Origin: an uncultured virus (IMG/VR IMGVR_UViG_3300015360_000035) | Lineage: Duplodnaviria > Heunggongvirae > Uroviricota > Caudoviricetes | Virus record (IMG/VR): IMGVR_UViG_3300015360_000035 | Length of the DNA stretch: 64,000 nt | Direction: 5' to 3' (one strand) | Part shown: in pieces, positions 1,638 through 63,732 of the stretch | How positions within the stretch are numbered: position 1 is the first letter of the stretch | How the letters are laid out: each line of letters opens with the position of its first letter | The notes under the pieces: model-generated | Database searches by the model: none | Told to the model about the DNA's origin: nothing | The model's input: the letters and a program-made list of their open reading frames with translations, nothing else | Position numbers and translations under genes: made by a program

Positions 1638-1871
1638 TCAATCTAGTACTTCTTTTATGGATTGTTGCCATTTGTATTCAGATAGAAGCATAAAGTCATA
1701 ATGTAATTCATATTTACTTACAAGATACCCTTTACTATCATTATCTTTATTAAGTATAACTAAACTATGATATATACTTAGATGTGCTATTGTGAATATG
1801 CTTCCAATTTCTATGCTATTAAAATTATTATCTGCTTCTTTTATGTATATGATTTTGTCTTTATCTTTCAT
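1638..1871 (-). CDS. Hypothetical protein, paralog of 2001..2258; carries C-terminal tag (WQQSIKEVLD)
   Basis: Near-identical to neighbour at DNA and protein level. Confidence 0.75.
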   Translation of the reverse strand: MKDKDKIIYIKEADNNFNSIEIGSIFTIAHLSIYHSLVILNKDNDSKGYLVSKYELHYDFMLLSEYKWQQSIKEVLD

Positions 1872-2000
1872 ATACTTCTCCTAGTTAACATTTCTTAACT
1901 ACCATTTCTATTGCAGTAAACAACATTATGTGATACTAATAAGAATATGCATTTGGTTGAGTGTAACCAAAAGTGAAACTCAACACCTGTGTGATGATTG

Positions 2001-2258
2001 TCACGATTCTAATATCTCCTTTATGGATTGATTAAACTTAAATTCAGATAGAAGCATAAAGTCATAATGTAATTCATATTTACTTACAAAATACCCTTTA
2101 CTATCATTATCTTTATTAAGTATAACTATAACTAAACCAGGATATCTACTTATATGTACTATTGTGAATACATTTCCAATTTCTATAACATTAAAAGGAT
2201 TATCTATTTCTTTTATGTATATGATTTTATTATTTTTTTTCATAGTATTCCAATACAT
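2001..2258 (-). CDS. Hypothetical protein, paralog of 1638..1871; carries C-terminal tag (FNQSIKEILES)
   Basis: Shared 'ILNKDNDSKGY.VSKYELHYDFMLLSE'. Confidence 0.75.
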   Translation of the reverse strand: MYWNTMKKNNKIIYIKEIDNPFNVIEIGNVFTIVHISRYPGLVIVILNKDNDSKGYFVSKYELHYDFMLLSEFKFNQSIKEILES

Positions 2259-2400
2259 CTACATATCCTGAGAACAGAATATGTAAATTGTGGTTATGCG
2301 AAGTTACTTAATAGCTTCTTTATACTTTTATATAGTATAAAAATAAAACCCCCAGGAATTAGAAAGATAAGTAAATAAGTAATAGAATATTTTAATGTTC

Positions 2401-2541
2401 TCATGAGTTCTCCTGACAACCGTATACAATGAGTTCTCGTCTGGCTTTATGACGTACTCCTTCAAAACCCAGTTTAACTAACATACGACCTGTTTTGAAA
2501 CCAATAGGACTAAATAGAAGAGATATTAGTAAAAATAACAT
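2401..2541 (-). CDS. 46-aa protein (MLFLLISLLFSPIGFKTGRMLVKLGFEGVRHKARR...), not in ORF track
   Basis: AAGGAG RBS; paralogous to 2556..2705. Confidence 0.6.
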   Translation of the reverse strand: MLFLLISLLFSPIGFKTGRMLVKLGFEGVRHKARRELIVYGCQENS

Positions 2542-2555
2542 AGTGCTCCTTTTAA

Positions 2556-2705
2556 TTAGAAACCAACACCCATGCTCTTTAAATCGTCTATGAGCCTCTG
2601 AGTACGTTGCTTGTGACGACTACCCTTAAAACCTAACGAAACCAGCCTACGGCCTGTTCTGAAGGTTATGTGACCTAGTATGTATGGGTTGATTAAGTAT
2701 AGCAT
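2556..2705 (-). CDS. 49-aa protein (MLYLINPYILGHITFRTGRRLVSLGFKGSRHKQR...), not in ORF track
   Basis: AAGGAG RBS directly downstream of a sigma54-like promoter; paralogous to 2401..2541. Confidence 0.6.
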   Translation of the reverse strand: MLYLINPYILGHITFRTGRRLVSLGFKGSRHKQRTQRLIDDLKSMGVGF

Positions 2706-2743
2706 GTGATCTCCTTTTGGTTGACGTTACGGGCATATAGTAA

Positions 2744-2760
2744 TGCATTCAACATGCCAG
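2744..2760 (-). promoter_or_regulatory. sigma54 (RpoN)-like -24/-12 promoter
   Basis: CTGGCATGTTGAATGCA, GG-N10-GC. Confidence 0.6.
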
Positions 2761-2852
2761 AAATTCCCTAATGATATCGCATTGCATGCTCTGGAAAGTT
2801 GATTATCTTTTAGTCAGATGTTAAATCTTAAACAGCTAAATAGGATTGAGAC

Positions 2853-2868
2853 GTGTCAGAAATGACAC
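2853..2868. promoter_or_regulatory. Palindromic candidate enhancer/activator site
   Basis: GTGTCA-gaaa-TGACAC about 95 bp upstream of the sigma54-like promoter. Confidence 0.4.
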
Positions 2869-2929
2869 AGGATTACTGTAAATACAATATAAATGCTTTG
2901 AATATCAATGAGTAACAAATAGTAGTCCA

Positions 2930-3052
2930 TTATCGATACAATTCGCAATAGTGAACGCATTCTTGGTGCACAGAGCACTCGGTTTCGCAAGGGACACGTC
3001 GATAGGTAGCACAAGATGAAAGAAATAATAAAACAAGAATTAAGTATTTCAT
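2930..3052 (-). CDS. 40-aa Cys-rich lipoprotein (MKYLILVLLFLSSCATYRRVPCETECSVHQECVHYCELYR), not in ORF track
   Basis: Lipobox LSSC after hydrophobic core; TAATG coupling to hicA stop. Confidence 0.6.
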   Translation of the reverse strand: MKYLILVLLFLSSCATYRRVPCETECSVHQECVHYCELYR

Positions 3053-3252
3053 TAAACTACCATCCTTCGGTCATAGTGGTTAATACCAGTTTCAATAGTA
3101 CGCTTGATCTTATTTGCAAGGAATTTATTAACTTCGGTGTGATGTGGTATTGCAATGGTGTTGATACCATTTGTATACAACTTGTGTCCTGAGTTACGAA
3201 GGAAGCGATAACCTTTATCTTCTAACATTTTAATTAAATCTTTCGTTTTCAT
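3052..3252 (-). CDS. hicA: HicA-family mRNase toxin-like protein
   Basis: 'LIKMLEDKGYRFLRNSGHKLY...IAIPHH.EV' HicA pattern with conserved His. Confidence 0.8.
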   Translation of the reverse strand: MKTKDLIKMLEDKGYRFLRNSGHKLYTNGINTIAIPHHTEVNKFLANKIKRTIETGINHYDRRMVV

Positions 3253-3603
3253 ATATTCCCTTTCGGATCTATATATAGAATATCGTCTTTCGACTCATTT
3301 GTCTAGTGTGTAAATAATGACACATTTGTTTATTTTTCATTTAAATAAATATATAAATCGTCAATGCTATCGCCTAGATGGACCATGTGTAACTTGTATA
3401 CACGCTAAAGCTTAGTCACACTTGTTATTGAGTTTATGGATATGGTCTGTATGTGTTTACCAGTTGAGAAAATTAAAACCTTTGTGGTGGAAATAAAATC
3501 GGCATCCTTTATAAGTTCATTGATTGTTCATCTTGGCATTTAATAACCCAATGCTTAGTAACTTGAGAGTGCTGAATTTTCTTCCGATCGTAGGTAAAAA
3601 TAC

Positions 3604-5010
3604 CTACCCAGCTAGGCTAAAATACGGGCATCTGGACCAATCAATTTTATCTGATAGGAATTTCTTCAGGATATGCTGTTTGGGTAGACTACTCAGAAAT
3701 TCTGGAAGGGCCACCCGTAGTGCCTGAGCAGTAACTGCTTCAGATGGACTGATATCAGTGCGCATTGTTCGCAGCCAACTTCCAAATCCTTTCCAGATTT
3801 CTTCTCGAAATGTGATCGAAAGATATTGAAGCATCCCTTGCGCAATTAGGCCTAGCTGTATATGAAAATTATAAGCTGAGATTTTTCTTTTCACGCTTTC
3901 ACGATAGTCAGCTGATCTGTGATGCATGTATTGGTCTCCACTTCCACGACGAACCTTCTCCATTGTCTTCATCCAGAAGCGGTAGCCATATGCACCCAAC
4001 GTGTGCATTGCCTGCTTGAAGCTGACTTCAATTTTGAAACGAAGTCCGTAAAGCTCAATAATTTTTTGAGCCTGCAGAGTGAGATCCGTTGACATGAGAA
4101 TAATGCAGCCTCTCGTCGGGTGTACGACCCAAACAAATCTGATTTTTGATTGCAGCGGACGCAAAATCAAATCTAGGACAAAATATTGAATCTTGATTCC
4201 TCGTTCCCCATATATGGTGCTGTCAATCTTAGTAAAGGCCGTAAGATCTTTGAAAAACATTTTTAGTTTGATTTTTTTTCCGTAGAGTTGAGGGCGACCT
4301 CTTTTTCGCTTTCCTGAGAGGACGACAGCCTCCTCATAGGCAACTGCGTTTGACCGAACACGACTGATGAGGTGCCCACCTTGTGCCAGTAGACCTAGGC
4401 AGATCTTGCGACTCGAGTAGTAAGCGTCGGCAACAAGGTAAAACGAACGCTGAAGCTGAAGTCCTCCGATCATCAACAAAAGCTTGTCCAAAAGCGTTCT
4501 GGAGTCTCGATTCGAAAAAACAATTCCTTCATGAATTTGACTCGTCAACGGGACCGCGAAGTGAGAGCCCTCAGCCTGAACCAGCATGCTAACGGCCTGA
4601 CAGGAATGAGCCATAACATATTCGGGCTTGGAATTATTTGTCGACTCCTGATGGAGAAGCTTGACGCCTGGCATCCTCCGACCCTCTTTGGGAGCTTTTA
4701 TTCCGTCAGCCAGTAGGACGATCCGTCCATTACACATCACTAAATGAGCGGCGAATAATTTTAAGACAAGTTGTACCCAAAGAATCTTTAACCTTACTGA
4801 ATCGACCGATCGACTGTGAAAGGCGTCCAGCAGCCTACGATAGCAGGCTGGGACAAGCCAGTGGGACCGGACAAAACTGGTCACCCCGGCAAGATCAGTT
4901 CGAACAGAAAAGGAGGCCAGAATTACAACTACCCAGAGGAAGGTTTTTTCATGCCGAACCGAAGAGCGCAGTTGCCAAACCGCCCCAAGCCATGTCATCC
5001 ATAAAGTCAT
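3604..5010 (-). CDS. DDE transposase (IS4/IS701-like superfamily)
   Basis: 'LLADG', 'LVADAYY', 'GRPQLYGKK', 'IIELYGLRFKIEVSFKQ' (Y-x2-R-x3-E motif). Confidence 0.85.
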   Translation of the reverse strand: MTLWMTWLGAVWQLRSSVRHEKTFLWVVVILASFSVRTDLAGVTSFVRSHWLVPACYRRLLDAFHSRSVDSVRLKILWVQLVLKLFAAHLVMCNGRIVLLADGIKAPKEGRRMPGVKLLHQESTNNSKPEYVMAHSCQAVSMLVQAEGSHFAVPLTSQIHEGIVFSNRDSRTLLDKLLLMIGGLQLQRSFYLVADAYYSSRKICLGLLAQGGHLISRVRSNAVAYEEAVVLSGKRKRGRPQLYGKKIKLKMFFKDLTAFTKIDSTIYGERGIKIQYFVLDLILRPLQSKIRFVWVVHPTRGCIILMSTDLTLQAQKIIELYGLRFKIEVSFKQAMHTLGAYGYRFWMKTMEKVRRGSGDQYMHHRSADYRESVKRKISAYNFHIQLGLIAQGMLQYLSITFREEIWKGFGSWLRTMRTDISPSEAVTAQALRVALPEFLSSLPKQHILKKFLSDKIDWSRCPYFSLAG

Positions 5011-5044
5011 ATAGACCCCCCACGAGCCTCAGTGCCAGATTAAA

Positions 5045-5551
5045 ATGCGGTGCCGAGACATCCCATCAGAAGAGATGGACGTGGGTCAACAAGAGAGTAA
5101 AATTATGGCCAAAACTACGGCAAAAGTTGGAATATCAATATTATTTCTAATGGCAATTATTTTTGTCATGCCTTTTTTAGGATCACTTTTAGTGATCGGG
5201 GCAGGCTACTTATTGAACCTGATCGTGGGAATAGGGCATTTGCAGAGCTCGGTTGTTTTTATTGCTACTCTATTCACTGGCGTTCTGGCCATTGGATTGA
5301 CCTTTGTGACTGAGGAAATTAGAAAAAGTAATACCTTGCTCCAGAGGGATTTAGACATAGACGAAGATGATGAATGGGATGAAGAAGCAGAGGAAAGCGA
5401 AATGGATTGGGAGTCTCTACATCAGAAAATGGAGCCAGTAAGCCGCACTCCAAGAGTTGGTCGAAATCACCCCTGTCCCTGCGGAAGTAATAAAAAATAT
5501 AAGATGTGCTGCCTCAGAACTGACACTCAGGCAGAGGATATTCCGTTTTGA
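5045..5551 (+). CDS. IS passenger: membrane protein with acidic linker and C-terminal SEC-C Zn motif
   Basis: Hydrophobic helices; '[19 protein letters not shown]'. Confidence 0.8.
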
Positions 5552-5663
5552 GATCTATGCGGTTCGAAACTCCGCACTCTCAAGTTAGTAAATACATAGT
5601 TAATAAATAACTTATAACCAGAATGCAACATAATAATGGAATGATGTGTTTTTTAATTCCAGT

Positions 5664-5676
5664 AAATTAACAAGTA
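5664..5676 (+). promoter_or_regulatory. Late-promoter-like motif AAATTAACAAGTA with no downstream ORF
   Basis: Exact copy of the motif found upstream of structural genes. Confidence 0.45.
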
Positions 5677-5923
5677 ATAGTGTAACATACTTAAGCTGTA
5701 ATAGTCGCCACATATCGCACAAGGCCATCAAGGCAGTAACCAATGGTAGTTGGGTCCTTAAGTTGTTTATAGGGTGTTAAATACATAAGCTTTATCCTAA
5801 GAGCATATTCCCTATAGACCGAATACTAGCTAACGAGATAACTAGGTCACATTTAATGCATCGCGGGGACAAGGTCCTCTAAGAATATCTCGTCCAAATA
5901 TTTCCGTAAGTTAATAATATGTC

Positions 5924-5997
5924 GTATATTAAACACTTGCTCCCAGTGCTTCCGTAGTATTAAATACTTGCTCCCGTAGTATTAAATACTTGCTCCC
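5924..5997. repeat. Tandem 22-bp direct repeats in a non-coding region
   Basis: GTAGTATTAAATACTTGCTCCC at 5954-5975 and 5976-5997; degenerate copy at 5924-5944. Confidence 0.85.
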
Positions 5998-6276
5998 AAG
6001 AGTTAATAATATAGGGTCCTTCCCGACCCTTTTGAAACACAATGCTCTTCTGTTTCATTACTCTATAACATACTGTAACTATTAGGATATTAACTACAGT
6101 TAACACAGTGTATATAATACACATGAGCTAACTAGTTGATATTGTTGGATAGATAGGGGGGTAGGGGTATTATAAAAAGACGAAAGAACTCATATACATA
6201 CGACTACAAACGGTGCTATATTAACGTTGTTTACCGTGACAACATCAATTGATCGAAATAATAAGCAATTATGTTA

Positions 6277-6573
6277 TTAATTGAGCACTTTCTCCAAATC
6301 ATTATTAAAGTCTTCTAGCTGAATGGGATTTTTTACTATTTTTATTAACAAGGCATCATCTTCGTTTAATAAACTAATATTTACAGTTTTAATAAGCTCT
6401 ACATTAGGATAACAGGTTACTCCATTAATTTCAATGGTTCGTGTATTGTTTGGAGCATTTCCTCTACTTTGCAATAATTTATTATTCCTAAGGGTGAATC
6501 TCCAGGTTTCTCCATGCTGGGATGCATATAGCAACACAGGATGCCCGCGGTATTTCCAAGGGTTACGTTTCAT
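6277..6573 (-). CDS. Hypothetical protein with C-terminal tag (FNNDLEKVLN)
   Basis: ORF track; motif. Confidence 0.7.
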   Translation of the reverse strand: MKRNPWKYRGHPVLLYASQHGETWRFTLRNNKLLQSRGNAPNNTRTIEINGVTCYPNVELIKTVNISLLNEDDALLIKIVKNPIQLEDFNNDLEKVLN

Positions 6574-6700
6574 CTAATATTTCCTTTAGATTATCATTAA
6601 ACTTTTGTACTTTTAAAAATTCCTTAGCTTTAGTTATAATATGTTTGAATATTTTGTTCATTAATCGAGCTGCCTTTCCCATAGTAGGTTGATGTTTCAT
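6563..6700 (-). CDS. 45-aa protein (MKHQPTMGKAARLMNKIFKHIITKAKEFLKVQKFNDNLKEILDET) with C-terminal tag, not in ORF track
   Basis: Manual translation; ends in the tag motif; overlaps 6630..6917. Confidence 0.5.
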   Translation of the reverse strand: MKHQPTMGKAARLMNKIFKHIITKAKEFLKVQKFNDNLKEILDET

Positions 6701-6883
6701 AATGTTTAGAAATAGTTATATTTTTTAAATGTAAGCTATTGTTTGTTATGTATAAAATTTTATGTCTATTGCGAAAAAAATAATATTTCTTTTTGAGTTT
6801 TTTAAATAAATCAGTATCAAACAGTATAATAAAGGAATATAAAAAAAGAATTCCAGGAATAAATATATTAATTATATGAAGCA

Positions 6884-7219
6884 TTAGTCTAGCTCTTTCT
6901 TTAAGGATTGCTCCCACTTATGCTCTTTAATGAGAAGATTAATAACTGCCATAACGTCTTTAGAGTACTCCTTTCCAAAAGAACTTTTAATATGTTTCAA
7001 TAAAGCTCGTTTAGGAACAGTAACCAAAGGCGGCACATTGAAACAGAACCATCTAAATCTAACCCTAATCTTTTTAAATGAAGTAGGAACAATTATATAA
7101 TCAACTAATAGTTTTTCATCAATAATATCAGCATGATAGTAACACCCATATGCCCGGAATAATTTTAAGTTCCGGGGTTCTTCTATTGAATCATAGAATA
7201 GAATTAATGGCTTTGGCAT
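6884..7219 (-). CDS. Hypothetical protein with degenerate C-terminal tag (WEQSLKKELD)
   Basis: ORF track. Confidence 0.65.
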   Translation of the reverse strand: MPKPLILFYDSIEEPRNLKLFRAYGCYYHADIIDEKLLVDYIIVPTSFKKIRVRFRWFCFNVPPLVTVPKRALLKHIKSSFGKEYSKDVMAVINLLIKEHKWEQSLKKELD

Positions 7220-8012: not shown

Positions 8013-8018
8013 AAATAA

Positions 8019-8513: not shown

Positions 8514-8571
8514 ACTATATCCTAAAAAAGTTAATAAAGCAATTGACTTTTTAAAATGTCCATGTTATGTT
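8514..8571. promoter_or_regulatory. Back-to-back divergent sigma70-like promoters, both leaderless
   Basis: Minus: TTGCTT(8542-8537)-N17-TATAGT-N6-ATG(8507). Plus: TTGACT(8543)-N17-TATGTT-N7-GTG(8579). Confidence 0.6.
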
Positions 8572-8881
8572 GTTAACTGTGAATCAAGAAAATGTTTTTA
8601 TGATCCGACATCTTTATTTAACAAGTCAGTATTTAGTATTTCTTACTAGTGGAGATTATTATTTCACTGATGAATTAAACTTAAAAGATTTCTATTCCTA
8701 TAAGCATGATGGTTCTACTAACTATTATAATCTCAAACTTATAAATGAAATAGGTTTACCAAAAGTAAAAAAACTTCTTGGTCAATTCTATGCAGCAGAG
8801 AATTTTTATAGTCTAGACTTATGGATGAAGGACATAAAGATCCTACTGTTTGAAGTTGATTTGGATAAGGCGTTACATTGA
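8567..8881 (+). CDS. Hypothetical protein with degenerate C-terminal tag (FEVDLDKALH); probable start GTG 8579
   Basis: ORF track; promoter geometry. Confidence 0.6.
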   Translation: MLLTVNQENVFMIRHLYLTSQYLVFLTSGDYYFTDELNLKDFYSYKHDGSTNYYNLKLINEIGLPKVKKLLGQFYAAENFYSLDLWMKDIKILLFEVDLDKALH

Positions 8882-9111
8882 AACTTAAAGAAGCACTTAA
8901 TACAGGATATAGGATAACTCATCCAATTTGGATACAGAGACCACATTGGTGGTATAAAAAGATAAATGAACAAGAGTTTATAGATGGACGCGGAAGTAAA
9001 AAGCTCATTAATAAACACATTATGACAGGTATAATTAATTGGACCATTCATCCAGAAGATCAAAAGATAGTAGACTTTAATAACTCATTGAATCAAATCT
9101 TAGAGGAATAG
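8878..9111 (+). CDS. 'KEALxTG' paralog family member 1, with C-terminal tag
   Basis: MKLKEALNTGYRI...WYKKI...IHPEDQKIVDFNNSLNQILEE. Confidence 0.8.
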   Translation: MKLKEALNTGYRITHPIWIQRPHWWYKKINEQEFIDGRGSKKLINKHIMTGIINWTIHPEDQKIVDFNNSLNQILEE

Positions 9112-9112
9112 A

Positions 9113-9388
9113 ATGTATAAACGAACATGTAAAACTTGTGGCATTGAAAAGCATTACAAGTATTTAGCTTTGGATAATAGAAGCCGTAGTGTTTATAAAG
9201 ATGAAACAGGAAAGCTTTGGCATGGTAAGAAATGCGGAGATTGTCAGCTCACTGAAGTAAAACGTATTTTAGATAAACAACCATTGTCTGAAAGTGTGTG
9301 CAAAGTTTGTAGTAAGGAATTTAAGAAGAAGGCTATTAAACAAATAGTCTGCTCTTTAGCTTGCTACAAAATCCTGAGAAAGTCATAG
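9113..9388 (+). CDS. Zn-finger-like protein
   Basis: CKTC, CGDC, CKVC, CSLAC. Confidence 0.65.
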   Translation: MYKRTCKTCGIEKHYKYLALDNRSRSVYKDETGKLWHGKKCGDCQLTEVKRILDKQPLSESVCKVCSKEFKKKAIKQIVCSLACYKILRKS

Positions 9389-9679
9389 CTTCTTAAGTTC
9401 TGAATTAAACTTAATAGCAGCATGAAGCTTCTTCTTCTCTGCTTCTGAAACAAAAGGATCTGTGTCAATAGGGTTTCCATCCACCCAGTATTCAGATACA
9501 TCGTCTAGGTGTCTAATCACTGCTGGTCCTTCTAGGCTATGAAGGAACTCGATCATCTTGTGATGTAAACATAGTTCATGTGCAGTTAAAGTTTCAGGAT
9601 TAGGACAATCCTTAAGAAAAGATTTCTTAACAGTAATTGTAAATCGTTTATCTTTAGTTTGAAAGGTATGAGTATTCAT
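9383..9679 (-). CDS. Hypothetical protein (HSLEGPAV...EYWVDG) with short tag (FNSELKKL)
   Basis: 'H..EGPA....EYW..G' unit common in phage proteins; own promoter and RBS. Confidence 0.7.
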   Translation of the reverse strand: MNTHTFQTKDKRFTITVKKSFLKDCPNPETLTAHELCLHHKMIEFLHSLEGPAVIRHLDDVSEYWVDGNPIDTDPFVSEAEKKKLHAAIKFNSELKKL

Positions 9680-9740
9680 TTTAGTTCCTTATCTAGGTTA
9701 ACATTAAACTTATAAGTGTCAAGTAAAGTCTTAAAGATTT

Positions 9741-9950
9741 TTAATCTTTGTCATCTGTTAGCGCCTCTAGTTTTGCATTGAACTTAATAATGTCTATGTG
9801 CTTTTTTATAATATTAGCAAGGATTAGATTATCCTCAATGTCAAAGTATAATACTTGTTGGTTTTCTAAATCAGTAATGATAATTCTAATCTCTAAAGGA
9901 ATTTTATTGTACTCTTCTTGTAGTTCTTCTACATCTTTTTCTTTACTCAT
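9741..9950 (-). CDS. Hypothetical protein with C-terminal tag (FNAKLEALTDDKD)
   Basis: ORF track; coupled to the VWA gene. Confidence 0.6.
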   Translation of the reverse strand: MSKEKDVEELQEEYNKIPLEIRIIITDLENQQVLYFDIEDNLILANIIKKHIDIIKFNAKLEALTDDKD

Positions 9951-11275
9951 TTTAATTTATCCAGCTCAATGGTTTTTCCTAGGTGTTTTAAAGGATGGTT
10001 AGTGTTACCATTCTTAGAAATAATGAATATAACTTCTCCAGAAGGTTTAATGCTTGGAGCTTCAAAATATCCATCAGTAAGTACAATGCTGAGATTAGGA
10101 TTAGTCTTTTTAATATCTTCTAGAGCTTCAGTAATATCTGTACCACCAGATTCTAGTTGATTTTCTTTTAGACGTTCTTTAAGTTTATAAGGGCGCTTAT
10201 AATACATACTTGTGTGCCAAAGAGCCAATGTACAAGTTCTAGATCCTACTTTCAAAAATCCATCCATAATACTAAGGAATTCATTCAGCTCAGTGTGAGA
10301 AATAGACCCGGACGTATCTACGTAAAAATTTAATTTTGGGAAGTCCCCAGTTTTCGTGCCAGGAGAAAATACTCCATAACGTTTATTAGGTTTCTTCCAA
10401 GTACTTTCTCTATCTGATGTAGAAACTGTACGTTTAATTGCATTCTTTAGGATTTGTTTGTAGTTTAGAGCAGAACTCATAGTTTTTAGTTCTTGAAGCA
10501 TATCTTTTACTTCACCAGGAACAATAGTATGAGTGTGTGAACTCTTTTCAATGGTTCTTTGTAGAACCTTTTGAGCTTCATCAATCATTTTCTTCTTAGT
10601 TTCTTCATCTAGATCATCCCAGTTGTGCTCATCAAAAGAATTAGGAAACTTTTCTAGCATTTCATTTACGTTACCTTTAGTTTTCTTATTTCCCTTTTGC
10701 TTTTCAGCTTCTTTTTTAATAAGGTCATAATAACTTTCCATGGTCTGCAAAGTAGGAAAAGGAGAACCATTATCTAGCTTCCAATCCTTAACATCTACCC
10801 ATTTACCAGGACAAGAATCTTTTAATTCCTGACTTGAATGAAGAGCTTCCCATTCTTCTGGGGTTTTTGTATCTTTATCTTTACAAGCTTCACAACCTTT
10901 TGCGGTTAGATTAATATATTGATTAATAGCCATGTCGCCAGCTAGGTTATAAAGCATCTTTTCTTGATTAGATACTTCTTTATTAAGAAAAGGTAATCTA
11001 AATAAATGTTTATTAGTAAAGTGAAGCATCTCATGTTGAAATACTGAAACCTTTAGCTCATTATTTAGTCTAGTAATAAAGTAGTCAGGATTTACATACA
11101 TTTCATACTGAGTAGTCTTTTGATTAAAAGTAATCCCTGCAGTTGGCACCATGTATGTGTATTTAACTGTAAGGACCTGTAATAAGTTACCATAGAATGA
11201 TTCTTGTTCAGTTAATCTAAAAATAGTAGCTTGCAGAGCCAGCTTTTTCTCTTCAGTAGTAAATTTTTTTGTCAT
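9947..11275 (-). CDS. HExxH metallopeptidase-like plus VWA domain protein (DUF2201-like)
   Basis: 'HEMLH...NLAGDMAINQ'; MIDAS 'VDTSGS', 'GGTD', 'LTDGY'. Confidence 0.85.
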   Translation of the reverse strand: MTKKFTTEEKKLALQATIFRLTEQESFYGNLLQVLTVKYTYMVPTAGITFNQKTTQYEMYVNPDYFITRLNNELKVSVFQHEMLHFTNKHLFRLPFLNKEVSNQEKMLYNLAGDMAINQYINLTAKGCEACKDKDTKTPEEWEALHSSQELKDSCPGKWVDVKDWKLDNGSPFPTLQTMESYYDLIKKEAEKQKGNKKTKGNVNEMLEKFPNSFDEHNWDDLDEETKKKMIDEAQKVLQRTIEKSSHTHTIVPGEVKDMLQELKTMSSALNYKQILKNAIKRTVSTSDRESTWKKPNKRYGVFSPGTKTGDFPKLNFYVDTSGSISHTELNEFLSIMDGFLKVGSRTCTLALWHTSMYYKRPYKLKERLKENQLESGGTDITEALEDIKKTNPNLSIVLTDGYFEAPSIKPSGEVIFIISKNGNTNHPLKHLGKTIELDKLK

Positions 11276-11278: not shown

Positions 11279-12340
11279 TTAAGCCTGTTTATATTTTCTT
11301 ACAGAATTAATAAGAGTTTTTAATTCAGGATTAGACTTTACTAGACGAGCTAGCATTGTTTCATCATCTCTTTTAATAGTTAGGTTTCTAATAAGAGGAA
11401 CTCCCTGCTCAACTGGAATAACTTTGAGTACTTCGACAAGAAGTTCATCAGCAATTGTTCCATCATCTGTAATATCTTTTACAGTTAAAGAAATAAGACC
11501 ATTTTTATAGTTATCGGGGTCAGAAAACTTAGCAAGTTTAGCCAAAGATTCAACTTTATGCTTCAAAATATGAGAATACATTACTGGACTTTCATTATGA
11601 AGGAAACTATAGAAGTCTTTCCCAACATTTCCACCAAGAATAGTGTCAAGAATCATCTGTTCTTCTTCATGACTGAAGCCAGCTCGTAATGCAGCATTAA
11701 GTTTAGAGAATGTGCGTGGACTGTTGTATTTAGCTCCAGGAGTGTTGCCGATTTGTTCAGGAAGTTGGTAAACCCAAGTACCAGATTCAACAAAATTACG
11801 AATGTCTTTATTCCATTCAGTTTCTTCCATGTATTCCATGAAGGATTTCTTATCATAAGAGACTGCAAACATCTCAAAACGGTCCTTAAGAGCAGGGTCC
11901 ATTGTAGTTACGTCACACAATCCTTCTTCAGCATTAACACTTGCTACAATAATCCAACCATCTGGGAGCTTATAGCCATCAAAACCACGTCTAGCATCAG
12001 CTAGGGCAAGAATACACTGCATAATACTAGGTTGAGATCTATTCATCTCTTCTAAAATGATAACCCCTTTACCTTCATCTGGCCAAAAGTATGGAGTTGC
12101 GAAGTTAAGACGTTGACGTCCTTTAACAATTTCAATATTTGGAAAGCCTTTAAAGTCTGGAGGATCAATAGTAGATAAAGATAGTGTAACTGATTCAAGA
12201 CCTCTAGATTTAGCCCATTGCTGAATAATCTCAGTCTTACCAAGCCCAGGAGCACCAACAAAACAAGGATTAAAAATATCCCCATTAGTTCTTGCTCGTA
12301 CCGTCATATCCAAAATACTATGAATTTTATTAGGCGTCAT
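11279..12340 (-). CDS. MoxR-like AAA+ ATPase
   Basis: Walker A GAPGLGKT; Walker B IILEEMNR; 'MDPALKDRF'; 'SPRT'. Confidence 0.85.
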   Translation of the reverse strand: MTPNKIHSILDMTVRARTNGDIFNPCFVGAPGLGKTEIIQQWAKSRGLESVTLSLSTIDPPDFKGFPNIEIVKGRQRLNFATPYFWPDEGKGVIILEEMNRSQPSIMQCILALADARRGFDGYKLPDGWIIVASVNAEEGLCDVTTMDPALKDRFEMFAVSYDKKSFMEYMEETEWNKDIRNFVESGTWVYQLPEQIGNTPGAKYNSPRTFSKLNAALRAGFSHEEEQMILDTILGGNVGKDFYSFLHNESPVMYSHILKHKVESLAKLAKFSDPDNYKNGLISLTVKDITDDGTIADELLVEVLKVIPVEQGVPLIRNLTIKRDDETMLARLVKSNPELKTLINSVRKYKQA

Positions 12341-12394: not shown

Positions 12395-12646
12395 CTATTT
12401 TAATATTTCTTCTAAATTTTTGTTAAAATCTATTAATTTTTGATCTTCGGGATGTATAAACCAAGAAGTGCCTATATACATAAGAGTATCTATATATTCA
12501 ATAATAAGACGTTTCTTAGGTTCTAATGAAAATATAAATTCTTTTTCATTAATTTTTTTATACCAATAATTATTATAATCATCTACATAGGATAGATGGC
12601 CATTTTGTATTCTGCATCCAGTATCTAAGGCTTCTTTAAAGGTCAT
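12395..12646 (-). CDS. 'KEALxTG' paralog family member 2, with C-terminal tag
   Basis: MTFKEALDTGCRI...WYKKI...IHPEDQKLIDFNKNLEEILK. Confidence 0.8.
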   Translation of the reverse strand: MTFKEALDTGCRIQNGHLSYVDDYNNYWYKKINEKEFIFSLEPKKRLIIEYIDTLMYIGTSWFIHPEDQKLIDFNKNLEEILK

Positions 12647-12827
12647 CTAAAATACTTTCTAAATTATCATTAAATTCTTTAAGTTTAATCAAATCATCTA
12701 TATATTTCCGAGCAAGCATTATACTTCCATAAGTACAACCACAAAAAATGATATTTTCTGATTTATTATGAAATATATCCTTATTGGCTAAGAATGGATG
12801 AAACATTACTTCATATCCTCTATACAT
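12636..12827 (-). CDS. Hypothetical protein with C-terminal tag (FNDNLESILDDL)
   Basis: ORF track; motif. Confidence 0.65.
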   Translation of the reverse strand: MYRGYEVMFHPFLANKDIFHNKSENIIFCGCTYGSIMLARKYIDDLIKLKEFNDNLESILDDL

Positions 12828-51316: not shown

Positions 51317-51636
51317 TTTACCTTGATCTTTAAATTATCGACTTTATTTAATAATTCTATGGGGTCATAGTTAAGTTTATAATATTTTATTGAGCTTTTG
51401 AATTCAGTAAACAATAATGCAAAATCATAAAAGAACATTCTTTGTTTTACTGGTTTACCAGACCATTGTTTATAAGCTTGAAAAATAATTCTCGGTCTGA
51501 TTCGGTTCTTACCTTTTTTAATATTTAAAGTTAGAACAAAAGTGTGTACATCATTAATACCTTTTCTAGATTTCTTACTGAGAACTTGTTTATTATCTTC
51601 TGCAATTCTAAGTAACTCTTTTATATCTATGGGCAT
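51313..51636 (-). CDS. Hypothetical protein
   Basis: ORF track. Confidence 0.55.
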   Translation of the reverse strand: MPIDIKELLRIAEDNKQVLSKKSRKGINDVHTFVLTLNIKKGKNRIRPRIIFQAYKQWSGKPVKQRMFFYDFALLFTEFKSSIKYYKLNYDPIELLNKVDNLKIKVK

Positions 51637-51827
51637 TATTCATCTAATATTTTATCAAATTCTTGATCAATTAATACAATTTCTATATGATTTCTAACAT
51701 CTCGTAAATGTCTAAAGTACTGAACTTTATTTTTAGTTTTAAATTTCCATCTACCTAAGATTTCATCATTTTCAATCTTAGGTTCAAATAACTCAAAAAC
51801 TTTAAAATGCTTATGGATAATCTTCAA
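51636..51827 (-). CDS. Hypothetical protein with degenerate tag (IDQEFDKILDE)
   Basis: ORF track. Confidence 0.55.
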   Translation of the reverse strand: MKIIHKHFKVFELFEPKIENDEILGRWKFKTKNKVQYFRHLRDVRNHIEIVLIDQEFDKILDE

Positions 51828-53949: not shown

Positions 53950-54195
53950 TTATTTTAAAATATCTTCTAGATTTTTATTAAAATTATAAAGTTTTTCATC
54001 GTCTGGATAAATAAACCAATCGGATGATTGAGTACTCAAATAACTAGAGTGATCTTTTATAGAATGAGTAAAACCTTGGGTATCAATGAATGTGACTTCC
54101 GATATTTTTTTATACCACCAATAGCCTATTGAGTTGTACATCCAAGCAGCACTTTGTATTCTCATTCCAGTATCTAATGCTTCTATAAACGTCAT
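53950..54195 (-). CDS. 'KEALxTG' paralog family member 3, with C-terminal tag
   Basis: MTFIEALDTGMRI...WYKKI...IYPDDEKLYNFNKNLEDILK. Confidence 0.8.
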   Translation of the reverse strand: MTFIEALDTGMRIQSAAWMYNSIGYWWYKKISEVTFIDTQGFTHSIKDHSSYLSTQSSDWFIYPDDEKLYNFNKNLEDILK

Positions 54196-54617
54196 TCTAG
54201 TACTCTATCTAATTCTTTATTAAAGTTCTCAGACTTAATAATATTATTAACATCTAATAATGTTCCTCTAAATATTACTTCATAACTATCCCTATTTAGA
54301 GAATGAGTGATATCACCATAAAATATTCCGGCATAGTTATTAGATTTAATATTAAAAAAAGCTTTAAAATTTTCAAAATTATCAAGAGCTCCTTTATTAA
54401 TTTCTTTTAATAAATACTTATCTGGTAAATAAATTACATAAAAAATAGATTCTGCTAATTTAGAGAATTCTATAATAATTTCTTTATTATTAACATTAAT
54501 CTTGCTTTTTAGATAATAATCCCACCAATACTCTACCTTATCAATTTTATGAGGTATTTGATTATTGATTTCTTTTATTAATCCTTCAAGATGTTTTTGT
54601 AATTTTTCAATCTTCAT
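54192..54617 (-). CDS. Hypothetical protein with C-terminal tag (FNKELDRVLE)
   Basis: ORF track; motif. Confidence 0.7.
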   Translation of the reverse strand: MKIEKLQKHLEGLIKEINNQIPHKIDKVEYWWDYYLKSKINVNNKEIIIEFSKLAESIFYVIYLPDKYLLKEINKGALDNFENFKAFFNIKSNNYAGIFYGDITHSLNRDSYEVIFRGTLLDVNNIIKSENFNKELDRVLE

Positions 54618-58596: not shown

Positions 58597-59664
58597 TCAT
58601 GATTTCTTCCCATGCGCTCTATTTTCTAATATGCCGGCATTAGTTATTTCTACTAGCTCAGCTTCTTCTTGAAACTCCTGAATAGTACTTGCTCCAACAT
58701 AAGACATTGCACTACGTAGTCCAGCGTCTAATCTTTCAATAGTGTGTTTAACTGGTCCAGAGTAAAGAACAGTAAATGAATCTCCTTCTGGTGTTCTATG
58801 AGGAGAAGTCTTACCTTGGACATCATAGGATGCTTGTGAGGCTGATCCTCTGTATTGTTTGTATTTAGTTTCTCCAATAACTAGTACATTAGGAGCTTCT
58901 GTTGCTCCTGCTAACAATTGGCCGCACATAACTGCCGTAGCTCCAGCTGCCAAAGCTTTTGCATAATCCCCAGATTCTTTAATTCCACCATCCATAATTA
59001 ATGGTTCGCCAATAAACTTAGCTTCATCTACATACATAGAAGCACTAAGAACTTTATTATGAGTTTGGATATCCAGCAATGAGGCTAATCCAGGGTAACC
59101 GCATCCTGTAACTACTCGAGTAATACAAGCAGATCCTCCACCTATGCCCAATTTAAATGCGTCAACTTTATGTTCTTTAAGATGTTTCTTAAATTCTACA
59201 ATAGACTGAGCTGTAGCAAAATTACCAGCAATAATGTAAATAGAACTTTCAAACCACTCACGTAACTTAATAACTTGCTCGACTGCTTGAATACTAGCTC
59301 CATGGGCAATATCCAAAACAAGATGTCTAGCTCCAGATTCAACTAAAGCTTTAGCTCTGCTTAGTTCCTTTTCTCCTACTCCAATAGACACCATCGTATA
59401 AGCTCCAGAATGCTTCACTGCATCAAATGCTTGTGCATTAGCCTCTATGTCCCAGAAGCGATGTAAACAGCTCATAGCGCCTGCTTCATACATTGCCTTG
59501 GCCATATCTACGGTAGTAACAGTGTCCATATTCGAAGAGATGATTGGAATGATGTTTAAACCTAAAAAGTTTACTTTACTATGTACTTCTGATCTAGATC
59601 TAATGGTACTGAATTTAGGTGTGATTAAAATGTCATCAAAGCTCAAAAGTTTTTTCATACGCAT
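58597..59664 (-). CDS. IMP dehydrogenase/GMP reductase family enzyme (no CBS domains)
   Basis: SNMDTVT, DIAHG, AGN, GIGGGSACITR, DGGI..GD.AKALAAGA, YRGSAS. Confidence 0.9.
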   Translation of the reverse strand: MRMKKLLSFDDILITPKFSTIRSRSEVHSKVNFLGLNIIPIISSNMDTVTTVDMAKAMYEAGAMSCLHRFWDIEANAQAFDAVKHSGAYTMVSIGVGEKELSRAKALVESGARHLVLDIAHGASIQAVEQVIKLREWFESSIYIIAGNFATAQSIVEFKKHLKEHKVDAFKLGIGGGSACITRVVTGCGYPGLASLLDIQTHNKVLSASMYVDEAKFIGEPLIMDGGIKESGDYAKALAAGATAVMCGQLLAGATEAPNVLVIGETKYKQYRGSASQASYDVQGKTSPHRTPEGDSFTVLYSGPVKHTIERLDAGLRSAMSYVGASTIQEFQEEAELVEITNAGILENRAHGKKS

Positions 59665-60079: not shown

Positions 60080-60364
60080 CTACTCTTCTTCTAATAGTTT
60101 GTCTAGATTATTATTAAAAGCTAATACTTTTTTATGTGTTACATAAGCAGGACTTAAAAGAAAGGTAGGAAAAATCTCAAATATGCTTCTATAGTAATTA
60201 GTATCTACGTGATAATAATGTGTATATAGTTTAGACAGTTCAGGTAAGTACTTTTTATTTACATCAAATATGAAATAAGTTGTATATTTATTAGTAGTAT
60301 TATTTTCTAAAATAAAGAAATCTTGAATAAAATATGTATGCCCTTCAACTTCATAAAACTTCAT
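60080..60364 (-). CDS. Hypothetical protein with C-terminal tag (FNNNLDKLLEEE)
   Basis: ORF track; motif. Confidence 0.65.
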   Translation of the reverse strand: MKFYEVEGHTYFIQDFFILENNTTNKYTTYFIFDVNKKYLPELSKLYTHYYHVDTNYYRSIFEIFPTFLLSPAYVTHKKVLAFNNNLDKLLEEE

Positions 60365-62590
60365 TTATTTAGCCTCGTCCCAACTATAAGCAATCAATGG
60401 GTCTGCTTTTAAGGGTACAGATAGTTTGACTGTATTTTCCATACAAGCTTTTAAAATAGGTTTTGCTCGTTCAGCATCTTCAGCTTTAATAATACAGCTT
60501 AATTCATCGTGAACCATGGTAACAATGCATCCCTGAATTCCTGCTGCTTTAAAACCTCTATTTGTAGCTATCATAGATCTATTGACTACATGAGCAGCAA
60601 CTCCTTGAATAGGAAAATTCTTAGCTAAATTTAACATGTTCTTAAACTTCCAACGTAGTTCATCTAGTCCATTTGCTTGAGCCCATTTTCTATCTAATAG
60701 TTTAAACCCATAAGCTTTGTATAATCGTTTCGCTTCTGGCAAGTGTCTAATTCTACCAAACTTTGTTTTCATAAATCCATTTAAGCATACAAACTTATCA
60801 CAATCAGACATATATTTTTTTAGTCCAGGATAAGCATCCAAATAGTCATCAATAATTTTTTGAGCTTCTTTATATTTAATTTTCATTAGTTTGGATATAC
60901 GTCCTGCTTCTGCTCCATAGACGACAGCTAATGCGACCACTTTTGCTTTCTGTCTATATTCTGGATACTTCTTCTTAACTTCATTTGCAGTACAATCTAA
61001 GTTCCAAATATTTTTAGCAATAGAACCATATAGATCTTCATTTTTAATAAATACTTGTTGTAATAGGTAATCTCCACAAGCCTCAGCAAATGCTCTAGGT
61101 TCCAATTGGCTATAATCTGCATTTAGGATTAGGTTTCCTTTACCTGCCACAAAACCTTTTTTTATCCCATTAACATATTTTAGTACTGTTTCTGACAACC
61201 CGCTATCTTCTTCTTTTACTCTAGGAAGGTTTTGAAGATTGGGGTCTCGACTAGAGTAGCGTCCGCTATCTGTTCCAAACTGAAGCATACTTCCATAAAT
61301 AACGCCATCAATATGACGTTCTAATAGACCTTCGATATAAGTTGTCTTAAGTTTAATAAGTTTTTTAAAGTCCAATAGAGTATTAATCCATTCATACTTA
61401 GATTTAATACTTTCTAAAAAATCTTCATCTACTTGAGGTTGATTACCCTCAGTAAAAGTTAAAGGCTTTTCTTTTAGTTTTTCAAAGAATAGCCATTTTA
61501 AATCATATACAGATTTTAAATTAAAGATGTAACTACTCTCATTTTCAAGATGATGCCAATACTGTTGAGTTTTAATAATTAAATCTAAATTTAAATCTTC
61601 TTCTTCTTTTAGCCAATGTAAGAAATTTCTATGCTCTTCTGTTTCAGGTTCTTGTATTTTATCAATTTCTTTTTTAGCTAAAGTTACTTTTCCATTCTTT
61701 TCTGGTAGAGTAAATCCAATCAATGTTGCAGCATGTTTAGGAAATAAGCCTGATCGCTTTGGGGGATGTTGTTCTTTTAATAATTCAGCTACATATTGTC
61801 TAGTTAATGGAGCAAGGTCTTCTTGTGTTTTCTTTTCTAAATTCTCAATCTCTTTGGAAATATTAAAGTTTAGATCTTTAAAATACTCAACATCAATTGG
61901 AAACCCCTGAATCTTCATAGGAATAGTTACTTCTTTATATAAAGGCATAATTTCATCAACATAAAAAAGTTTATCTAAATTTTCTAATTTAAGCTTTGGT
62001 TCAAATAGATTAAACAGCTTCATTGTGAGAATAGTATCATATGCACAATATTCGCCTAGAACCTCTAGGTCAGCTTTATACATCTCTACATTGTCTTTAT
62101 TTGTCTTACCGCCATTGTCTTTAATGTTTTGATATAGTTTATCCTGAGCTTTATCTGCCCATGCACCTAAATACTTTACTGCAGTTTCTTTTAAACCATG
62201 AGGACGATCTTCATTTAGAGTATGCTTTTGTAAAATAGTATCAGCATAAATATGATCGGTAAGATTAATATTCCAATTATAGAGTAGCACAAGAATATCA
62301 TAAATAATATTATGTCCTACTAGTTTTTTAGATAGGGATTGTTTATAAATCCAATCTTTAATAGATTCTTCTTGTTCAGCTGTCCAGTATTTGGTTGTAT
62401 CTTTATGCCTAATGGGAATGTAGAAAGCTTCATTTTCTTCAAAGCATAACCCTACGCCATATAGTTTAGCTTTCTTTTCAATCACACTATCTGTTTCAGT
62501 ATCGAGAGCTAGAAAACTATAAGTATTAATATCAACATATTCCTTTAACTGATGAAACTCTTCAATAGTTTTAATAATATGATGTTCCAA
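60365..62590 (-). CDS. polA: Family A DNA polymerase with 3'-5' exonuclease
   Basis: LDTET, HN..YD, YCAYD; DYSQLEPR, RQKAKVVALAVVYG, NFPIQG, VHDE. Confidence 0.95.
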   Translation of the reverse strand: MEHHIIKTIEEFHQLKEYVDINTYSFLALDTETDSVIEKKAKLYGVGLCFEENEAFYIPIRHKDTTKYWTAEQEESIKDWIYKQSLSKKLVGHNIIYDILVLLYNWNINLTDHIYADTILQKHTLNEDRPHGLKETAVKYLGAWADKAQDKLYQNIKDNGGKTNKDNVEMYKADLEVLGEYCAYDTILTMKLFNLFEPKLKLENLDKLFYVDEIMPLYKEVTIPMKIQGFPIDVEYFKDLNFNISKEIENLEKKTQEDLAPLTRQYVAELLKEQHPPKRSGLFPKHAATLIGFTLPEKNGKVTLAKKEIDKIQEPETEEHRNFLHWLKEEEDLNLDLIIKTQQYWHHLENESSYIFNLKSVYDLKWLFFEKLKEKPLTFTEGNQPQVDEDFLESIKSKYEWINTLLDFKKLIKLKTTYIEGLLERHIDGVIYGSMLQFGTDSGRYSSRDPNLQNLPRVKEEDSGLSETVLKYVNGIKKGFVAGKGNLILNADYSQLEPRAFAEACGDYLLQQVFIKNEDLYGSIAKNIWNLDCTANEVKKKYPEYRQKAKVVALAVVYGAEAGRISKLMKIKYKEAQKIIDDYLDAYPGLKKYMSDCDKFVCLNGFMKTKFGRIRHLPEAKRLYKAYGFKLLDRKWAQANGLDELRWKFKNMLNLAKNFPIQGVAAHVVNRSMIATNRGFKAAGIQGCIVTMVHDELSCIIKAEDAERAKPILKACMENTVKLSVPLKADPLIAYSWDEAK

Positions 62591-62599
62591 GAGCTTCCT

Positions 62600-63505
62600 T
62601 TATTCTAGTTCTTCTAACCTTTTAAGTACTGCTTCAGTTTGAGCGATTACGTCCCTTTTGTCAACAAAATAGGATATTGATTCAAGTAGCTTTCCCATTG
62701 CATCTGCTGTAGTCCAAAGTACTCCCATTGTAATCAATCCTTGAAAGAATGAAGGAGCAAGTAGTGCAAAAGGTAGAATAGCTGATATTTGACCAAACCC
62801 GCTTTGAAAGAAGCCTAGAACCTTATTTCTATAGGCCAAGTGTAACCAATTGAGTTTAACTTGCTCAAGGGATGGAATTTCTGTGTCACTCTTGACAAAG
62901 GTGATTAATTCTCGATTTAGATCCCCTTCCCGGCTCTGCTGTTCGTAGTCTAGCTTCACCAAAGGGTTGGCTAGGTACTTAGCTAATAAAGACCCTACAA
63001 TCGAGTATACAAGGGAGAATAGAGCGGTTTTAAAGCCTGCCACGCTTACTAGGATGTATAGGAAAATAGGGAACTGGATTAAGGATGTAACTAGTCCTAC
63101 AAGTAGGTTAATAGATAGTTGTGAGATTTGGATAGTGTCCCAAAGCAGACGCTGCTCAGGCACTGTACAATGAATAGTCTCTCTATTCGTCTTAAAATGA
63201 AGAGTGAAATGGTTATAAAGCAGTTCTCGCCAATGAAACTCTGTTTTTCTAGACCAGAAGCTGCTATAGCCTTTAAGAATAACTCCAGTCATTGCCAAGC
63301 CTGTAAAGATAAGCATAGCATTAATCCATTGTTGAAAGTTGTTCTTTTGGAAGGAGTCAATGAAATAGGTTCTCCAGTAAGTAATACCTGCTCCAAGGAG
63401 TACCGTAATAATAGTTGCACCAAGAACTAAGGAGATTAACTTTTTAGTTTCTTTTGTTTGCCATACTGGTTTTAATAATTTAAGTAGTCGTTTTAAAAAA
63501 TTCAT
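62600..63505 (-). CDS. SbmA/BacA-like transporter membrane domain (no NBD)
   Basis: Multiple TM helices; 'PEQRL..D', 'QSREGDL.REL', 'PF.LLAP.FF.G.IT.G'. Confidence 0.75.
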   Translation of the reverse strand: MNFLKRLLKLLKPVWQTKETKKLISLVLGATIITVLLGAGITYWRTYFIDSFQKNNFQQWINAMLIFTGLAMTGVILKGYSSFWSRKTEFHWRELLYNHFTLHFKTNRETIHCTVPEQRLLWDTIQISQLSINLLVGLVTSLIQFPIFLYILVSVAGFKTALFSLVYSIVGSLLAKYLANPLVKLDYEQQSREGDLNRELITFVKSDTEIPSLEQVKLNWLHLAYRNKVLGFFQSGFGQISAILPFALLAPSFFQGLITMGVLWTTADAMGKLLESISYFVDKRDVIAQTEAVLKRLEELE

Positions 63506-63732
63506 TCTAACACCTTTTCGAGCTCTTTATTGAAATCTATGATCTTTTGGTCATCAGGATGTATTCTATAATTAGAACCAGTACAATGCTTTATTAAATA
63601 AGATAATGAAAGTCGTATATTATTATGGAACAGTACTGTTTTTTTATCAATCTTTTTATACCATCTTAAATCAGTATTTGGTCTAGATGCCGTAATTCTA
63701 TAACCAGTATCTAATGCTTCTTTGAATGTCAT
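63502..63732 (-). CDS. 'KEALxTG' paralog family member 4, with C-terminal tag
   Basis: MTFKEALDTGYRI...WYKKI...IHPDDQKIIDFNKELEKVLE. Confidence 0.8.
   Translation of the reverse strand: MTFKEALDTGYRITASRPNTDLRWYKKIDKKTVLFHNNIRLSLSYLIKHCTGSNYRIHPDDQKIIDFNKELEKVLE

Follow-up and report, generated by a model that had tools for sequence, protein, structure and literature searches.

A C-terminal helix tag on small proteins of an uncultured tailed phage co-occurs with a MoxR-type AAA+/zinc-peptidase-VWA gene pair

We analyzed a 64,000-nucleotide stretch of DNA (hereafter the window) from an uncultured virus (IMG/VR record IMGVR_UViG_3300015360_000035), in which small, mostly unrelated proteins end in a shared C-terminal tag. 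The window is most of a tailed phage genome (73,918-base contig, 34% G+C) and encodes a terminase, a portal, a major capsid protein and a DNA polymerase; it probably stems from a microbial mat metagenome. The tag is real. It is ~10–14 residues long, with a hydrophobic face at positions 0, +4, +7 and +8, and among related phages it tracks a gene pair that encodes a MoxR-type AAA+ ATPase and a zinc-metallopeptidase-VWA protein. Both the enzyme pair and short address tags on diverse phage proteins (as in T4) are known; the tracking of this pair by a tag appears to be new. On balance, we favor the reading that the tag is a docking helix for the phage's own AAA+/zinc-peptidase-VWA machine, with the binding predicted. 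Judging from a model of the complex, the peptidase-VWA protein is a likelier reader of the tag than the ATPase.

The tag is a property of C-termini

All 16 open reading frames (ORFs) and C-termini listed in a preliminary description of the window were recovered at their positions and on their strands (Table 1). The literal pattern given there, [FW]NxxL[ED]x[IVL]L[DE], proved too narrow, as only 4 of the 16 fit it, whereas 13 of the 16 fit a relaxed core, [FW][NEQ]xx[LIF][DEKN]xx[LI]. Among 9,301 six-frame segments of the window, this core occurred 23 times: 13 matches close listed ORFs, 1–3 residues ahead of the stop codon, one ends a start-less frame (9676-9750), three end very short frames and six are internal. 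A scan with the strictest form of the tag pattern gave no match. The start-less frame, 24 codons long, is a further copy of the tag that was missing from the earlier list, and is probably a decayed or frameshifted mini-gene. A Logan contig from the probable source run matches window positions 2099-13500 without any difference (this assembly may not be independent), and therefore does not contradict the start-less frame.

To avoid circularity, the tag was scored with an out-of-sample profile, for which 12 tags were taken from two other phages (G017 and G019; relatives are labeled G0xx for genomes or records and Lxxx for loci), at a bar of 8 bits. This bar was reached at the C-terminus of 11 of the 99 window genes, compared to 2 of 17,003 internal windows. 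When the last 20 residues were shuffled 1,000 times, a mean of 0.35 and a maximum of 4 genes reached it, so the comparison with shuffled C-termini that had been proposed as a check came out in favor of the tag. The variant copies at 1638, 6884, 8567 and 51636 and the truncated copy at 9383 lay below the bar. Leave-one-out scores within the window were 7–29 bits across the 15 full-length copies.

Among the small genes, 11 of 46 outside the structural block were tagged and 0 of 20 inside it (Fisher p=0.026), in agreement with the claim that no tagged gene lies in that block. The bodies were said to be unrelated except for one pair and one four-member family; this also held, with the 15 bodies tested falling into 11 clusters. 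The mean hydrophobic moment of the tags is ~0.6, and their net charge is mostly negative.

Table 1. Tagged frames of the window and the AAA+/peptidase-VWA pair.
Position	Strand	Product	C-terminal tag	Remarks
1638..1871	-	77 residues, paralog of 2001	WQQSIKEVLD	variant tag, below out-of-sample bar
2001..2258	-	85 residues, putative KOW/SH3-like body (from sequence pattern), paralog of 1638	FNQSIKEILES	
6277..6573	-	98 residues	FNNDLEKVLN	
6563..6700	-	45 residues, barely more than the tag-ending helix	FNDNLKEILDET	
6884..7219	-	111 residues	WEQSLKKELD	variant tag; leave-one-out 18.7; below out-of-sample bar
8567..8881	+	104 residues	FEVDLDKALH	weaker tag; leave-one-out 10.9; below out-of-sample bar
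8878..9111	+	77 residues, Tad2-like body	FNNSLNQILEE	
9383..9679	-	family X, 98 residues, one LHNPxGPA beta-hairpin repeat unit	FNSELKKL	shortened tag
9676..9750	-	start-less 24-codon frame	FNVNLDKELK	23.2 bits; same letters in Logan contig
9741..9950	-	69 residues, directly behind peptidase-VWA gene	FNAKLEALTDDKD	atypical tag; leave-one-out 7.1; 9.5 bits out-of-sample
9947..11275	-	zinc-metallopeptidase-VWA protein, 442 residues		DUF2201_N E 5e-15 and DUF2201 E 1e-13; PHROG 1314
11279..12340	-	MoxR-type AAA+ ATPase, 353 residues		PHROG 1297 E 9e-42; Pfam AAA_5 above cut-off
12395..12646	-	83 residues, Tad2-like body	FNKNLEEILK	upstream of ATPase gene
12636..12827	-	63 residues	FNDNLESILDDL	
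51636..51827	-	63 residues	IDQEFDKILDE	weakest copy; leave-one-out 9.3; below out-of-sample bar
53950..54195	-	81 residues, Tad2-like body	FNKNLEDILK	
54192..54617	-	141 residues, without known family	FNKELDRVLE	
60080..60364	-	94 residues	FNNNLDKLLEEE	
63502..63732	-	76 residues, Tad2-like body	FNKELEKVLE	in the model, the tag is the C-terminal helix (residues 59–75)

The peptide and not the DNA is conserved

The claim that the constraint acts on the peptide was examined at the codon level. In the window, same-residue pairs share the codon in 129 of 250 cases, and genome-wide usage predicts 128.9; with the codons of small genes as background, 113 of 211 are identical, compared to 101.4 expected (p=0.13). 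Observed and expected numbers of identical codons are 768 and 816 in G016, 130 and 149 in G017, and 394 and 393 in G020. Synonymous codons are randomized, and therefore the peptide is conserved, not the DNA. Together with the out-of-sample profile, this supports the idea of a peptide-level address label.

The motif could also be an artifact of the DNA, namely the ribosome-binding site of the following gene read in frame. This explanation, named beforehand as one that could overturn the tag, is nearly negligible in our view and largely refuted for the window. A start codon does lie close to the stop codon of the tag (overlapping or abutting) in 7 of the 15 window tags and in 21 of 22 tags of G016, and the Glu codon in the different tag of G003 is GAG in 10 of 10 cases. 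However, 8 of the 15 window tags have no start codon within 38 bases of their stop codon, the conserved F-N sits ~30 bases 5' of the stop, the tag codons follow genome usage, and no shared DNA repeat was found among the tags beyond codon-level likeness. A ribosome-binding site may thus overlap some tag copies yet leaves the motif unexplained.

The tag is a separable module

Bodies of at least three unrelated kinds (Tad2-like, KOW/SH3-like and beta-hairpin repeat) carry the tag, which is a separable module. Pfam and PHROGs gave no family for any of the 16 tagged proteins. The four-member family of the window, a fifth member of which (P0005) lies on the contig outside the window, gave a high-confidence model, in which a small mixed domain precedes the tag-containing helix. 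The fold of its body (residues 1–59) may be similar to that of Tad2/AcrIIA7 (PF11195; PDB 8kbi and 9eib). AcrIIA7 and ModTad2 were the top two rows of the structure comparison (Z 4.7, next 3.5, with a caution level of 8 for this tool), at a root-mean-square deviation of ~3 Å over 56–57 aligned residues and 11–14% identity, which are modest scores. In the Atlas, clusters with PF11195 matched the Tad2-like body at TM 0.5–0.57. With Foldseek, neither the Tad2-like model (E above 1) nor the peptidase-VWA model had a match at E 0.001. In contrast to Tad2/AcrIIA7, the tagged family has no Pfam hit and carries the additional C-terminal tag; its nucleotide binding is putative.

The Tad2-like relatives in the Atlas (63–67 residues) are untagged, and their alignment covers only residues 1–63 of the tagged family. 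For the big protein library the profile of this family was used, because a tag-only profile is too weak there. Of its 31 hits, 28 are single-domain proteins with a tag-like helix at the end (26 of them at ≥10 bits), two are three-repeat homologs without the tag and one is unrelated; this profile includes the tag itself and is thus biased toward tagged hits. No relative turned up when metagenomes were scanned with the Tad2-like alignment.

Family X is a single unit of the common LHNPxGPA repeat. The helix tag ends 6 of the 7 family-X proteins and 0 of 25 other LHNP-repeat proteins. The body of the window pair 1638/2001 matches that of a tagged G016 gene (59813). An Atlas search with the protein encoded at 54192 gave only leads under 0.9. 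The 45-residue protein encoded at 6563 could be a competitor or a regulator.

The tag co-occurs with the AAA+/peptidase-VWA pair

Relatives of the window picked up by the capsid protein are viral contigs of 70–95 kb, and in ten of them the tag was not present in number. Searches of 2.9 million viral contigs with the DNA pattern of the tag alone gave 88, 10 and 29 matches, most of them isolated chance hits. Repeated tags were found in L102, L299, L301 and L298 (a near-copy of L301). All four contigs belong to the phage family of the window, and the three long ones encode the AAA+ ATPase of the window; the fourth is a 9.6-kb fragment. When the 99 window genes were compared to 16 records, the ATPase, the peptidase-VWA protein and family X were the only set that matched the presence of the tag: all three occur in G016, G017, G018 and G009, and the 11 tag-less records lack every one of them. 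The suggestion that the AAA+/VWA pair acts as a hub is thus strengthened. In G009 this trio is accompanied by a single tag, which the family-X gene carries.

In a forward test, a search with a four-row alignment of the peptidase-VWA protein alone yielded 48 loci, including three new genomes of the family. These carry 18–19 (G020), 6 (G022) and 1–2 (G021) helix tags. Single-protein and two-row scans for the ATPase added nothing new. No family-X hit was obtained in G020 or G021. G020 is rich in tags without family X, which excludes family X as the reader. Helix tags, one or more, are present in 7 of 7 lineages with the pair and are numerous in 5 of 7. Of the records without the pair, 0 of 11 are tag-rich and none is above 2 chance-level hits. 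The association of tag richness with the pair (5/7 vs 0/11) gives a nominal Fisher p=0.0025, with kinship and ascertainment ignored. On the capsid and portal trees the pair is patchy, with 3 changes, at least 2 of them forced; G001, the sister to the clade of the window, has neither the pair nor tags. Tagged frames also lie near the pair, with five around it in the window and 16 within 10 kb in G016. A metagenome scan with the tag pattern found two or more tags in none of 123 loci among the matches listed, which is not informative on absence.

The same records bear on two other hubs that had been considered. The first is a head protein, by which the tag would act as a capsid-loading signal like the capsid targeting sequence of T4, so that tagged proteins would be packed in the head and injected. 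The T4 internal proteins IPI–IPIII carry an N-terminal capsid targeting sequence of 10–19 residues, which targets them to the head core and is removed by the prohead protease (PMC9026906). As in T4, the short signal of the window is shared by small, diverse, non-conserved proteins encoded outside the structural block, and in T4 it is read by a phage-encoded structure. A virion-assembly role has been proposed for MoxR/metallopeptidase-vWA pairs (Iyer et al. 2021; PMC7824862), which would permit loading through the pair and overlaps with the docking of tags on it. However, T4 uses an N-terminal propeptide that is cleaved off (PMC9026906), whereas the tag is C-terminal, helical, tied to the AAA+/peptidase-VWA pair and divided into genome-specific dialects. 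The N-termini of the tagged window proteins are alike only among paralogs. Moreover, major capsid, portal and scaffold-like genes occur in all genomes of the family, and the tags only with the pair. Loading in the T4 manner is accordingly disfavored, and capsid loading in general appears distinctly unlikely.

The second is a protease, for which the tag would be a C-terminal degron read by a Clp-type or other protease. A ClpP-like gene (52965-53711) and the trypsin-like gene that adjoins it (52318-52968) lie next to three tagged genes. Against this, ClpP homologs are present in five tag-less genomes (G001, G005, G007, G013 and G014); in the tagged G016 and G022, none was found. End-anchored degrons of the ssrA type have fixed last residues, which are read with the free carboxyl end. 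Unlike these, the tag has a tail of 1 to ~5 residues past its last hydrophobic residue, and its last residues vary. We therefore give the degron very little credence, and a ClpP hub is not borne out by the genomes.

Each genome has its own dialect of the tag

The register of the tag is constant, and its letters are genome-specific and uniform within a genome. The dialect of the window is FNxxLExIL[DE], with L at +4 in 13 of 15 tags. G017 uses FNxKLExLINE, G019 uses FNxTLDxxL, and G020 uses LKxKLKxVFND, with F at +8. G016 and G022 share HxxxFNxKMExLLK; in G016, M is at +4 in 19 of 22 tags and K at +3 in nearly all. Orthologous bodies bear the dialect of their own genome, as seen for family X and for the window pair 1638/2001 compared to G016 gene 59813. 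Such dialects fit a phage-encoded reader that evolves with its ligands, and provide a built-in specificity test, the swapping of tags between genomes.

These data bear on the proposal that the helix docks on a host protein (a chaperone, a protease, a polymerase or the divisome surface), with the tag and the pair suiting the same host group. Proteins often dock through short, acidic amphipathic helices, and the hydrophobic moment and charge of the tags fit such helices. A host-linked co-occurrence of the tag and the pair is also compatible with the host matches, which in the genome database are contigs binned into three unrelated phyla and pick out no single host. However, the strong divergence of the dialects from genome to genome, together with their uniformity inside each, fits a fast-evolving phage-encoded reader better, the tagged genes cluster around the pair, and the complex model described below needs the peptidase-VWA chain. 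Docking on a host protein is thus unlikely.

The dialects could also come about without any reader, if a self-association or stabilizing helix had been distributed over the accessory genes through ancient recombination of their ends. Uniformity within a genome could then stem from one donor end, and the other shared ends on small proteins of G002, G003, G005, G009 and G022 (described below) are maybe those of diverged paralogs. Contrary to this, synonymous sites are saturated with the residues kept, orthologous bodies carry each genome's own dialect, and the tag's match with the AAA+/VWA pair would have to be coincidental; a reader-less helix is improbable. The alternatives thus stand in the falling order host docking, capsid loading, reader-less helix, Clp degron and ribosome-binding-site artifact.

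The pair and its predicted binding of the tag

The ATPase retains Walker A (GxPGLGK), Walker B (EE), DRF and SPR motifs in 4 orthologs. The conserved residues of the peptidase-VWA protein are those of an HExxH motif (H81, E82 and H85) and a metal-ion-dependent adhesion site (MIDAS; D320-x-S-x-S, T379 and D401), both of which are intact in 30 of 30 homologs checked. Its fold search gave weak matches, only to vWA domains and zincins, with a mediocre model (predicted local distance difference test, pLDDT, 63), and a sequence search for a solved relative found none. As the ATPase motifs and an adjacent gene with HExxH and MIDAS are both present, the pair falls into the MoxR AAA+/metallopeptidase-vWA class.

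This class is widespread in phages, being found in N4-like phages, jumbo phages and the present uncultured family. To our knowledge, the client of the pair is not known. A MoxR AAA+ ATPase with a vWA co-chaperone fused to an N-terminal metallopeptidase has been described in group 2.2 jumbo phages (Iyer et al. 2021; PMC7824862). The pair of jumbo phages and N4 has the same two-gene architecture, HExxH and MIDAS as that of the window, and N4 gp25-like homologs are 21–32% identical. In contrast, the pair of the window is found in a family of 70–95 kb with 5–25 accessory proteins that share a genome-specific C-terminal helix; the parts of the Iyer paper available to us mention no such tag or adaptor set. 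In a literature search that mostly lay outside subscription papers, no description of a tag read by a MoxR/VWA pair was found; the supplements of Iyer et al. 2021 may bear on the neighbors of the pair.

The pair and the tag were then modeled as a three-chain complex of the peptidase-VWA protein, the ATPase and the last 32 residues of P0005 (48–79), the partner having been guessed beforehand from co-occurrence. The tag scored 0.49, compared to 0.01 for the best control, and the score fell from 0.49 to 0.01 when the peptidase-VWA chain was replaced. The runs agreed in at least 86% of contacts, and the pLDDT of the partner was at least 59. In the calibration, 116 of 157 solved pairs made the mark, as did 2 of 215 mismatched pairs; at ≤0.60 there were only 18 solved pairs and both mismatches, and 0.49 is therefore weak support. 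The modeling check on the AAA+/VWA pair thus yielded a predicted binding that needs the peptidase-VWA chain, at a weak score.

Several points weigh against docking of the tag on this pair. The nominal p-value given above overstates independence because the genomes are related and G016–G018 were found through the tag. G009 and G021 have the pair but only 1–2 tags, the pair-less records G013 and G014 are only 76% and 64% complete, and of 40 loci with distant relatives of the peptidase-VWA protein, none has this tag in number within 10 kb. The dialects are not tied to the VWA tree over the capsid tree, as the VWA tree groups G016 with G022 and so do the capsid, portal and scaffold trees. There is no acidic residue that all dialects share, and a classical MIDAS ligation by the tag is thus not supported. 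As for the complex, the three-chain job is unlike the calibration, P0005 is a paralog from outside the window, no interface was given, and replacement of the peptidase-VWA chain could disturb a site on the ATPase. Finally, the pair-less G002, G003 and G005 have other shared C-termini, F[KR]LEL[IV] in G002 and G003 (in G003, its Glu codon also serves as a ribosome-binding site) and K[KS]H[HW]xP in G005, so shared ends are not unique to this machine.

Possible roles of the tagged proteins

If the tag docks on the pair, the amphipathic C-terminal helix would dock its carrier on the peptidase-VWA protein, the ATPase would pull on or release the docked protein, by analogy with other MoxR-VWA pairs, and the HExxH domain would perhaps cut it. 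Tentatively, the tagged proteins may be adaptors, the bodies of which would bind host targets such as defense proteins. In that case, small, fast-changing bodies would select the host target and the tag would carry it to the machine. That they are the machine's own substrates, which would be matured, released or destroyed on schedule, seems rather unlikely; adaptors are favored by bodies that are small, quickly replaced and akin to binding modules. The whole arrangement would then amount to programmable protein removal, in which one unfoldase-peptidase serves up to ~25 interchangeable adaptors for different host targets, with a private helix code in each lineage that coevolves with the reader. 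This broader proposal is doubtful.

Clp adaptors and tethering tails, among them SspB and MecA, and F-box-type receptor families combine a variable binding body with a short, unvarying element that docks on an ATP-dependent proteolytic machine. In contrast to the Clp adaptors, the machine of the window is a phage-encoded MoxR/zincin-VWA pair, and its adaptors are putative. In the MoxR-vWA ternary conflict systems, variable effectors are likewise joined to a MoxR-vWA core by a shared module, with the vWA domain capturing a peptide and the ATPase acting on the bound protein to remodel and release it (Kaur et al. 2020; PMC7159879). The effector-associated domains of these systems are folded, act by homotypic contact, and occur in cellular defense operons with VMAP or a similar third component, whereas the shared element of the window is a 10–14-residue tail on phage proteins. 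No VMAP-type or effector-associated Pfam families were found on the tagged proteins or the neighbors of the pair.

By following the pair, the shared tail lets the pair's probable clients be read from the sequence alone, and dozens of orphan genes in each genome become testable as a set. Should the tagged proteins be adaptors, they would constitute a modular platform for counter-defense or host takeover, and possibly an orthogonal tool for targeted protein removal in bacteria.

Other shared C-termini in phages

Arrays of 45–140-residue proteins were observed in G003 (7446-15700, L044) and G002 (245-1592, L040), with the shared end F[KR]LEL[IV]Y, and in G005 (2564-15012, L054), with K[KS]H[HW]xP. 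These arrays are interleaved with amidoligase, glutamine amidotransferase, ATP-grasp and COOH-NH2 ligase genes, and their shared ends are possibly tags for a peptide-ligase system. Beside the helix-tag system, G022 encodes 23 mini-proteins that end in [IV]L[ERTK]Y[EK] (L401-L405), and G009 encodes about ten proteins with W-rich ends (1619-3097 and 17055-21531). Two larger phages of another family have a peptidase-VWA gene of the sister clade: in G025 (L406-L413), D[FY]SxLPxE[LI]xAKF is found on 6 genes, and in G028 (L414-L423), YxE[WY]LxDxAIEEE[IV]L is found on at least 6. A phage protein family ending in GFNACLDEIL[KN], a look-alike helix, occurs in one copy per locus at L092, L100, L101, L103, L105, L106 and L109, and also at L125, L130, L139, L148, L149, L156 and L160.

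Genomic context of the window

A search for tRNA genes in the window found none, and INPHARED gave a single match, a Silvanigrella prophage record at 27%. Within the accessory region, a G+C-rich DDE transposase gene and a SEC-C-motif gene (3604-5551) are likely an insertion from a host and a lead to host identity. Three 19-base direct repeats lie in an intergenic stretch (5927-5998), where a second run has a 9-base deletion. The terminase (18560-21154, 864 residues) contains an internal stretch like those of other intein-bearing genes, a probable intein. A Mom-like DNA modification gene with endonuclease-like parts (31734-33137) lies behind the capsid gene. Host-like genes encode an SbmA/BacA-type transporter (62600-63505), an alliinase-type aminotransferase (13067-13987), a peptide deformylase (13984-14451) and a dehydrogenase (58597-59664). 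A YdcK-type beta-solenoid repeat protein with an 18-base tandem repeat is encoded at 164-841, and a small gene at 3052-3252 matches a bacterial toxin-antitoxin toxin family.

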